The notes under the pieces were generated by a model, which was given only the letters and a program-made list of their open reading frames with translations, made no database searches and was not told where the DNA came from. The translations under genes and the position numbers were made by a program. Positions 58,092 through 60,341 of a stretch of DNA of 64,000 nucleotides are shown one piece after another. The DNA comes from Phyllosticta citribraziliensis (Eukaryota), in the NCBI RefSeq assembly GCF_038025025.1, contig NW_027117341.1:1488001-1552000 (forward strand). Direction: 5' to 3'. Every line of letters begins with the position of its first letter. Within the stretch, counting starts at the first letter, position 1.

Positions 58092-59904
58092 ATGCCTGGT
58101 TTCTCGCAAGCCAACGAGCTCAGGGCCTGGCAGCAGCTCCAGGACCACCACCAGTCGCTGGGCAAGGACATTGTTCTCAAGGAGTACTTTGCCAAGGACC
58201 CCCAGCGCTTCGAAAAGTTCACCCGCACCTTCAACAACGAGGCCGATGGCTCCGAGACGCTCTTCGACTTCTCCAAGAACTTCATCACCGAGGAGACGCT
58301 CGACCTCCTGGTCAAGCTCGCCAAGGAGGCTAACCTCGAGAAGCTGCGCGATGACATGTTTGCCGGTGAGAAGATCAACTTCACCGAGAAGCGTGCCGTC
58401 TACCACGTTGCCCTCCGCAATGTCTCCAACCAGCCCATGCACGTTGATGGCGAGAGCGTCGTCGAGCCTGTCAACGACGTGCTGGAGCACATGAAGGAGT
58501 TTTCGGAGCAGGTCCGCAGCGGTGCCTGGACCGGTTACACCGGCAAGAAGATCAACACCATCATCAACATTGGTATCGGAGGCTCCGACCTGTAAGTGAC
58601 CATTGCGAGTATTGCGCAAAAGCACCGCTGACAATCGATTGCAGCGGTCCCGTCATGGTCACCGAGGCCCTGAAGCCCTACGGCCACCGCGACTTCAAGC
58701 TCCACTTCGTCTCCAACATTGACGGCACTCACATTGCCGAGGCCCTCAAGGAGTCGGATCCCGAGACCACCCTCTTCCTCATTGCCTCCAAGACCTTCAC
58801 CACCGCCGAGACCTGCACCAACGCTAACAGCGCAAAGAAGTGGTTCTTGGAGAAGGCCAAGGACCAGTCTGCTGTTGCCAAGCACTTTGTTGCTCTCTCC
58901 ACCAACGAGGCCGAGGTGACCAAGTTTGGCATTGACAAGAAGAACATGTTCCCCTTCAGCGACTGGGTCGGCGGCCGTTACAGTGTCTGGAGTGCCATTG
59001 GCCTGTCGGTCTGCCTCTACATTGGCTACGACAACTTCCGCGAGTTCCTTGCCGGTGCTCACGCCATGGACAAGCACTTCAAGGAGACTCCTCTCCACGA
59101 GAACATTCCCGTCATTGGTGGCCTGCTCAGCGTCTGGTACTCTGACTTTTTCGGCGCGCAGACCCACCTGGTTGCTCCGTAAGTAAATCATGGGATATGC
59201 AGGATTCCCTCTGACAATCATCTAGCTTCGACCAGTACCTGCACCGCTTCCCCGCCTACCTCCAGCAGCTGTCCATGGAGTCCAACGGCAAGGCCATCAC
59301 CCGCAGCGGCGACTACGTCAAGTACACCACCGGCCCCATCCTGTTTGGCGAGCCCTGCACCAACGCTCAGCACTCCTTCTTCCAACTCCTCCACCAGGGC
59401 ACCAAGCTCATCCCCACCGACTTCATCATCGCTGCCGAGAGCCACAACCCCGTTGAGAACAACCTGCACCAGAAGTGAGTTTACGACGTGCGAGTTTCGA
59501 CGCCAAATGCTGACTAGCCCAGGATGCTTGCTTCCAACTACTTTGCTCAGTCTGAGGCTCTCATGATTGGCAAGACCCCTGACGAGGTCAGGGCTGAGGG
59601 CGCGCCTGAGGAGCTCGTCAACCACAAGACCTTCCTGGGCAACCGCCCCACGACCTCGATCCTGGCCCAGAAGATCACCCCCGGTACCCTTGGTGCACTG
59701 ATTGTGTACTACGAGCACCTGACCTTCGTCGAGGGTGCCATCTGGAACATCAACAGCTTCGACCAGTGGGGTGTTGAGCTCGGCAAGTCTCTCGCCAAGA
59801 AGATTCTCACCGAGCTGGACGAGTCGAGCGAGTCGAACAAGCACGATGCCAGCACCAGCGGCTTGATCAACGCCTTCAAGAGGAAGGCTGGCATCTCGAA
59901 ATGA
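58092..59904 (+). CDS. PGI1: Glucose-6-phosphate isomerase
   Basis: [62 protein letters not shown] and [12 protein letters not shown]. Introns 58592-58644, 59179-59225 and 59475-59522. Confidence 0.98.
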
Positions 59905-60341
59905 CTTGCTGATGACGACGGACACGAAGCACGAACGGATAGTCGGTTGTAGGTAATCGGAGTTTTTGAGCGGACAGGGTTAGCACGACCTGAGTAGATT
60001 GAACGATGCCAAAAAAGCAAATACTAGCATGATCTGAATGTCGAAAAAATGAGCAGCAATACGTGCAATTCACGTTCGTGCTGGACTTGGCGCTGCGTGA
60101 AATGAGGTGTTGAACACGTCGATCTTTTTTTGAATCTCCGCGCGTGCTCAGCTCTGAACAACAACATCACAGCTACGCACACACGCATCCGCTGGGCCTT
60201 GCAACGCGACTGCAATGGCTGCTGCGACTGTGCTTTCTTGACGCCTCTTCTCTCCTCCAACCGCCCGTGGACCCTCTCTCCCTAGCGCGACACGCTCGCC
60301 CGCACGCTTCCTCTGACACCCGCCCGCCCCGCGCTACCACC

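Follow-up and report, generated by a model that had tools for sequence, protein, structure and literature searches.

A conserved in-frame extension behind a UGA-CU stop codon suggests a peroxisomal read-through isoform of glucose-6-phosphate isomerase in Phyllosticta

The glucose-6-phosphate isomerase (PGI) gene of Phyllosticta citribraziliensis ends in a UGA stop codon that is followed, in the same frame, by a short open stretch closing on a putative peroxisomal targeting signal of type 1 (PTS1). The gene lies in a 64,000-nt stretch of contig NW_027117341.1 (assembly GCF_038025025.1, positions 1,488,001 to 1,552,000 of the forward strand), here called the window, whose coordinates are used throughout. 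Comparison of this 3′ end with public sequencing runs of close relatives and with more distant fungal-like loci indicates that the stretch behind the stop is very likely a conserved, protein-coding-like extension. We further put forward, as the reading that we favour on balance, that the extension yields a read-through PGI isoform that is imported into peroxisomes. PGI would then probably be a new client of a known read-through mechanism; the principle itself is not new.

The coding sequence (CDS) of PGI ends GGC ATC TCG AAA TGA, with the stop codon at 59902-59904 of the forward strand, and the same frame runs on to SRL and TAG; both statements of the original prediction are confirmed by sequence and translation. 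The context of the proposed leaky stop, AAA TGA CTT (59899..59907, plus strand), continues with G, and thus presents UGA followed by CU. The tail (59905..59949, plus strand) comprises 15 codons (CTT GCT GAT GAC GAC GGA CAC GAA GCA CGA ACG GAT AGT CGG TTG) and is closed by a second stop, TAG, at 59950..59952 of the same strand, which leaves SRL (59941-59949) as the C-terminus of the predicted read-through product. Translation across the PGI stop reads GISK, stop, LADDDGHEARTDSRL, stop; the last 12 residues of the predicted product are DDGHEARTDSRL, with the end ...TDSRL, and the SRL directly before TAG matches the canonical PTS1 pattern [SAC][KRH][LM]. Neither of the other two frames behind the PGI TGA shows a PTS1-like end before its stop.

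Stop-to-stop intervals of 3-40 codons were enumerated in all six frames of the whole window as a measure of the chance level. A canonical PTS1 tripeptide ends 5 of the 1679 intervals and [KR]L ends 13; among the 39 intervals that start with TGACT, one has a canonical PTS1 end, and it is taken to be the PGI tail. Background rates amount to 0.3-0.65% for a canonical tripeptide and 0.8-1.5% for [KR]L. A single case in one genome would prove nothing, and conservation is hence the test.

The close-relative set consisted of four of the public runs X1 to X24, namely X3 (organism B), X12 (organism E), X13 (organism F) and X8 (an RNA library), for which Logan contigs were compared over 59650-60150. The coded organisms A to F share from 80% down to 21% of sampled words with the window, and RNA libraries from a plant metagenome were found besides. 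The differences listed for the main contigs cover 6 of 6 in X3, 9 of 10 in X8, 21 of 27 in X12 and 15 of 18 in X13, and the statements that follow refer to these. None of them alters TGA, CTT, SRL or TAG in organism B, organism E or the X8 fungus. The original prediction was to be given up if close relatives lacked an in-frame PTS1 extension; with TGA-CTT, the frame, SRL and TAG all kept in these three fungi, it has survived that check. The single-base changes within the tail, 59916 C>T in organism B (GAC>GAT), 59934 A>G in organism E (CGA>CGG) and 59937 G>A in organism F (ACG>ACA), fall without exception at third positions and are synonymous (3 of 3). The sole indel is a 3-nt insertion behind 59906 in organism F that recreates CTT GCT and, once realigned, amounts to one extra GAT (Asp) codon, giving LADDDDG...; the X8 fungus carries in addition a two-base change at 59908-59909 (GC>TT) that turns the second tail codon from GCT into TTT (Ala>Phe).

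Past the TAG the picture is different. The rest of the PGI 3′ untranslated region (UTR; 59953..60050, plus strand, with a probable mRNA end near 60030-60050) evolves as non-coding sequence, and none of the indels in it is a multiple of three: X8 has lost one base at 59977 and one at 60011, X3 one at 59980, and organism E shows changes of +4, +2, +1 and -1. Substitutions in organism E number 1 in the 51 nt of the stop-to-stop segment, as against at least 14 in 192 nt downstream and 6 in 252 nt of the CDS, and the sequence of organism F becomes unalignable after 59967. With synonymous and whole-codon changes inside it and frameshifting indels behind it, the tail evolves like coding sequence and unlike the rest of the UTR. 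Contigs from X8 and from X3, a run guessed to be RNA, cross 59902-59952 without a joint, which places the tail in a probably unspliced mature mRNA. These contigs end at about 60013-60044, where the X12 DNA contig runs on, a weak hint that the PGI mRNA ends there with the whole tail included. Two other fungi in the X8 plant metatranscriptome show loose PGI ends at window positions 59891 and 59895, reading ...GLS-TGA-IAPGSG... and ...K-TGA-MHGQEQLT...; both ends are 30 letters long, too short to reveal where their tails terminate.

For more distant relatives, metagenomes were scanned with the last exon of PGI, and 80 of 535 confirmed loci were kept. Ten of these are fungal-like (72-87% identity) and nine distinct, L005 and L006 being the same here; the closest family, with Botryosphaeria, Macrophomina, Diplodia, Neofusicoccum and Lasiodiplodia, lies outside this DNA-level comparison. 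Every fungal-like locus that stops at TGA (4 of 4) has an in-frame tail of 5-9 codons that ends in AKL (two loci) or EKL (two loci). The tails read MHDREKL behind TGA ATG in L001 and RFEKL behind TGA CGG in L003, both with TGA as second stop, and IAENAKL behind TGA ATT in L004 and RLDSEKAKL behind TGA AGG in L007, both with TAG. The other five distinct loci (L002, L005/L006, L008, L009 and L010), whose stop is TAA or TAG, show no such tail. With the window included, stop identity and tail presence thus divide 5/0 versus 0/5 (Fisher p = 0.008). As a control, 69 more distant loci, 52 of which stop at TGA, were passed through the same pipeline, and 0 of 69 have a tail that closes on [KR]L or on a canonical PTS1; the end of one further locus was not readable.

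These loci are related to one another, and the five tails therefore represent fewer than five independent events, which still comprise at least three tail types (SRL, AKL and EKL). The lineages lie well separated: over the last exon L001 and L003 share 88% identity and L004 and L007 only 75%, and each of the four is 76-87% identical to the window. Their nearest named proteins are Cryomyces-like for L001 (92%), Elsinoe-like for L003 (87%) and Teratosphaeriaceae-like for L007 (Elasticomyces, Oleoguttula and Teratosphaeria, at 90%); L004 has no named relative above 86%. The two EKL ends are spelled with different codons, GAG AAG CTT and GAG AAA TTG. Since the tails vary in both codons and length, conservation applies to the frame and to the end of the protein rather than to the nucleotide sequence. 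Under the names of two trees, Quercus suber and Carpinus fangiana, stand PGIs that are 82-89% identical to L007, and these plant assemblies probably contain fungal DNA.

The gene that carries the tail (58092..59904, plus strand) was delimited by its GT..AG introns and open frame. Its four exons (58092-58591, 58645-59178, 59226-59474 and 59523-59904) meet at joins of the form GTAAGT/GTGAGT ... CAG/TAG, and the spliced CDS of 1665 nt encodes, without an internal stop, 554 amino acids (aa) ending ...KRKAGISK. Homology was searched with the last exon as the sole query. This exon is 99% identical to a 554-aa phosphoglucose isomerase (NCBI name) of Phyllosticta citrichinensis carrying PF00342, and 84-89% identical to PGIs of Botryosphaeria, Macrophomina, Diplodia, Neofusicoccum, Lasiodiplodia, Cryomyces and Elsinoe, all with PF00342. 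Membership in this family, phosphoglucose isomerase, is established by 84-99% identity of the last exon to many glucose-6-phosphate isomerases of 550-556 aa, and the names of the nearest proteins place the host in the Dothideomycetes, order Botryosphaeriales. For Botryosphaeria dothidea and Cryomyces antarcticus, PGIs recorded in full or in part bear the name 'Serine/threonine-protein kinase' and are probably fused or mis-named gene models. Just 5′ of the ATG at 58092, positions 57991-58072 (GTGAGT...GACAG) resemble an intron in the PGI 5′ UTR, and the length of the X3 contig, 1896 nt, would fit a spliced PGI mRNA with roughly 100 nt of 5′ UTR. The region of the downstream gene contains GCCGTC repeats coding SPSPSP (60340-60370) and a long run of GAC/GTC type (60890-60960), in which the choice of frame decides between poly-Asp and poly-Arg.

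The mechanism that we propose starts from a stop codon on the PGI mRNA that would be programmed to leak, a UGA with AAA before it and CU behind it. Adenines directly 5′ of a stop codon favour read-through in yeast. Most ribosomes would terminate at the UGA and release the 554-aa cytosolic PGI; a minor share would insert a near-cognate amino acid there and translate 15 more codons up to the TAG. The end of the resulting product, ...TDSRL, would act as a PTS1, be bound by Pex5 and direct import into the peroxisome. Inside the organelle PGI would interconvert fructose-6-phosphate (F6P) and glucose-6-phosphate (G6P), and together with the known cryptic isoforms it would allow an oxidative pentose-phosphate pathway to recycle carbon and to supply NADPH in the peroxisome.

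Precedent for the stop context comes from Stiebler 2014 (PMC4207609), which reports that in Ustilago maydis and in HeLa cells a UGA with CU behind it is enough for efficient read-through, and that the effect is enhanced by A at +6 and by G at +7. In Table S1 of that paper, U. maydis rpe1 appears with TGA CTT, the tail ...RRPAKL and a PTS1 score of 12.7, and is scored as targeted; the paper also reports that the Rpe1 tail conferred peroxisomal targeting. The original prediction had cautioned that CTT is not the optimal CTA, a caveat largely removed by the sufficiency of UGA CU and by the use of TGA CTT in rpe1. Two other explanations of the codon itself were rejected: a sequencing error at the TGA, by the presence of the stop in all four runs compared, and its decoding as selenocysteine, by the lack of the machinery in fungi, as stated in the same paper.

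Several observations nevertheless weigh against an imported read-through isoform or reduce the force of the comparison. Asp at -4 and acidic tails can weaken PTS1 signals, and the PGI tail has Asp at -4 before SRL and is net acidic overall. No RNA fold behind the PGI stop is more stable than those of shuffled sequences (z = 0.29); a model of structure-stimulated read-through was dropped on this ground, and context alone would have to suffice. Among the tailed distant loci the stop is followed by A (three) or C (one) and never by CT, a less favourable setting that implies lower read-through or other determinants, and the tail is missing from five of the nine distinct fungal-like loci. The sole mention of EKL that we found concerns human ACSVL5, where it is described as a non-canonical PTS1 without demonstrated function. 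The loose end MHGQEQLT of another fungus in X8 resembles the MHDREKL of L001 without a stop after the L within its 30 letters, which means that the L001-type tail is not kept everywhere. Among the close relatives, organism F shows no listed change in TGA-CTT, SRL or TAG, with 3 of its 18 differences unlisted and possibly located at 59938-59967, close to where its aligned piece ends; the unlisted differences of main contigs number up to 6 in organism E, 3 in organism F and 1 in X8. The CDS of these relatives differs by about 2-5%, and conservation within the genus is consequently weak evidence when taken alone, its power being modest. Finally, the data document the anatomy of the sequence and its conservation, and it is from these that we infer read-through, import and the metabolic role.

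The same absence of a tail from five of nine loci can be read as a sign of chance, namely that the 3′ UTR is open for 15 codons and ends in SRL by accident, the tail never being made in useful quantity and serving no function. Open stretches behind stop codons are common, and with about 0.3% of the window intervals ending in a canonical PTS1, tens of accidental cases would be expected among ~10,000 genes of a genome; Li and Zhang 2019, as cited in a review, moreover considered most read-through to be non-adaptive. An accident, however, would not account for [AE]KL tails in all four TGA-stopping relatives and in none of the 69 controls, for the dependence of tail presence on stop identity (p = 0.008), or for changes among close relatives that are synonymous or of whole codons where the next 200 nt gather frameshifting indels. 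We hence regard chance as quite unlikely.

Conservation of the stretch could have other causes than import. The tail might be translated and kept for another fate of read-through products, or its letters might form an RNA element of the 3′ UTR, such as a protein-binding or stability signal. The DDD stretch and the Asp at -4, which by the usual rule are out of place in a strong PTS1, and the non-canonical EKL of two relatives would suit a role unrelated to import, and conservation right behind stop codons often exceeds that of the distal UTR. An RNA element, on the other hand, would not produce substitutions confined to third positions together with an indel of a whole codon, no stable fold was found, and tails compared across orders vary in length and letters and agree in frame, in the TGA stop and in a C-terminal x-K/R-L; taken together, these alternatives appear unlikely. 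The tail might also become part of PGI through rare alternative splicing or a frameshift instead of read-through. Alternative splicing yields the PTS1-bearing forms of GAPDH in U. maydis and of PGK in Aspergillus nidulans, reviews describe splicing and read-through as interchangeable among fungi, and a minor spliced form could be missed in contigs, which drop rare isoforms. For the same reason the lack of any joint across 59880-59960 in the four runs bears on abundant forms. The tail, however, lies directly behind the stop and in the frame of the CDS, the final CDS codons in the window (GGC ATC TCG AAA) offer no GT donor, and all five tailed genes use TGA, the leakiest stop, for which splicing would have no need; we consider this route very improbable.

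Read-through may not be the only way in which fungal PGIs acquire a peroxisomal end. At the end of the main frame, a canonical tripeptide was found in 1 of 221 related PGI tails (ARI). An end of the form KKK-[SA]-[SATG]-L is present in 67 of the 221, mostly from Pleosporales by name, with the tripeptides SAL, SSL, ASL, STL, AAL and ATL. Tripeptides of this kind can act as PTS1, as plant studies indicate. With the basic residues before it, the KKK-[SA]-[SATG]-L end resembles a weak non-canonical PTS1 and may, as a constitutive signal, take the place of the read-through tail. The main frame of L008 (1870-1881) ends in SKI before a TAG stop; this end and the ARI of the database PGI mentioned above suggest a third route to the same localisation. 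Locus L005/L006 (1861-1878) and database PGIs from Aspergillus and Paecilomyces end ...AKLS or ...KAKLA / ...KANLA, an AKL-like motif with one extra residue before TAA, and these masked ends could be a relic of a PTS1 end or a precursor to one.

A wider reading, which we offer as tentative and somewhat doubtful, is that partial peroxisomal targeting of PGI is ancient and has been repeatedly re-invented in Dothideomycetes and their neighbours by three routes, and that fungal peroxisomes then run a closed, cyclic oxidative pentose-phosphate pathway in which F6P is returned to G6P and NADPH is produced. The first route may be a strong PTS1 concealed by a leaky TGA in front of it, with SRL in Phyllosticta, AKL in the Teratosphaeriaceae-like and L004 lineages and EKL in the Cryomyces-like and Elsinoe-like ones; the others may be the weak constitutive KKK-[SA]-[SAT]-L end in Pleosporales and the occasional canonical ends SKI and ARI. 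This reading builds on the known cryptic isoforms of Rpe1, Pgd1, TPI, FBA, GAPDH and PGK. PGI would close the scattered peroxisomal isoforms of the pentose-phosphate and glycolytic pathways into a cycle, F6P from the non-oxidative branch re-entering the NADPH-producing branch inside the organelle. If the peroxisomal PGI isoform is confirmed, it would provide a testable handle on questions raised in a review, namely why fungi put sugar-phosphate enzymes in peroxisomes and what makes intact peroxisomes important for growth on glucose, and it would extend the UGA-CU read-through rule to the Dothideomycetes, a class rich in plant pathogens and in fungi of rocks and lichens. Cryptic isoforms escape both annotation and transcriptomics, and the enzyme content of fungal peroxisomes is therefore underestimated; hidden PTS1 tails could be flagged automatically by annotation pipelines.

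Reviews describe a number of fungal sugar enzymes with cryptic or weak peroxisomal targeting signals: GAPDH, PGK and TPI through splicing or read-through, Rpe1 through read-through, 6-phosphogluconate dehydrogenase (Pgd1) through splicing or non-AUG starts, fructose-bisphosphate aldolase (FBA) through a weak C-terminal motif, and, in Candida, Zwf1 and Sol3. The review passages and Stiebler 2014 tables that deal with cryptic isoforms do not name PGI. No prior report of a fungal PGI with peroxisomal targeting was found in the literature searched, where the matches were kinetoplastid, plant, human or unrelated papers and which did not extend to the Freitag 2012 and 2018 gene lists. The Arabidopsis cytosolic PGI, whose end is PQM, has been reported not to go to peroxisomes. 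The glycosomal PGI of kinetoplastids (PMC7237986), by comparison, carries a PTS1 for a peroxisome-derived organelle, as is predicted for the window enzyme. The kinetoplastid signal, however, stands in the main frame and the enzyme is essentially all organellar, whereas the main frame in the window has no PTS1 at its end (...AGISK) and the signal lies behind the stop. The weak C-terminal PTS1-like motif of fungal fructose-bisphosphate aldolase may find a parallel in the Pleosporales PGI ends of the form KKK-[SA]-[SAT]-L, as a matter of resemblance only; it belongs to a regular C-terminus, unlike the read-through tail of the window.

A likeness of form is offered by human LDHB and MDH1 (Schueren 2014; Stiebler 2014), which combine UGA CU(A), a short extension and a hidden PTS1 with dual localisation to cytosol and peroxisome; these are animal dehydrogenases of redox shuttles with the context TGA CTA, and the window enzyme is an isomerase. 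With Rpe1, Pgk1 and Tpi1 of U. maydis, whose PTS1 isoforms arise by read-through at UGA CU (Freitag 2012; Stiebler 2014), the window gene shares its nature as a cytosolic sugar-phosphate enzyme, UGA CU, a short in-frame PTS1 tail, and conservation of both the stop context and the PTS1; in the known class these two are kept across fungi, and the authors of Stiebler 2014 themselves used conservation as their criterion. It differs from Rpe1 in that the enzyme is PGI, that the host is a Dothideomycete and not a basidiomycete, that the tail is acidic in place of ...RRPAKL, and that the PGI case is known from sequence alone. All three sequence-level features of the class defined by Freitag and Stiebler are nonetheless found at the window PGI, namely UGA CU, an in-frame PTS1 and conservation, the last being less certain for organism F and accompanied by other +4 contexts at the distant loci.

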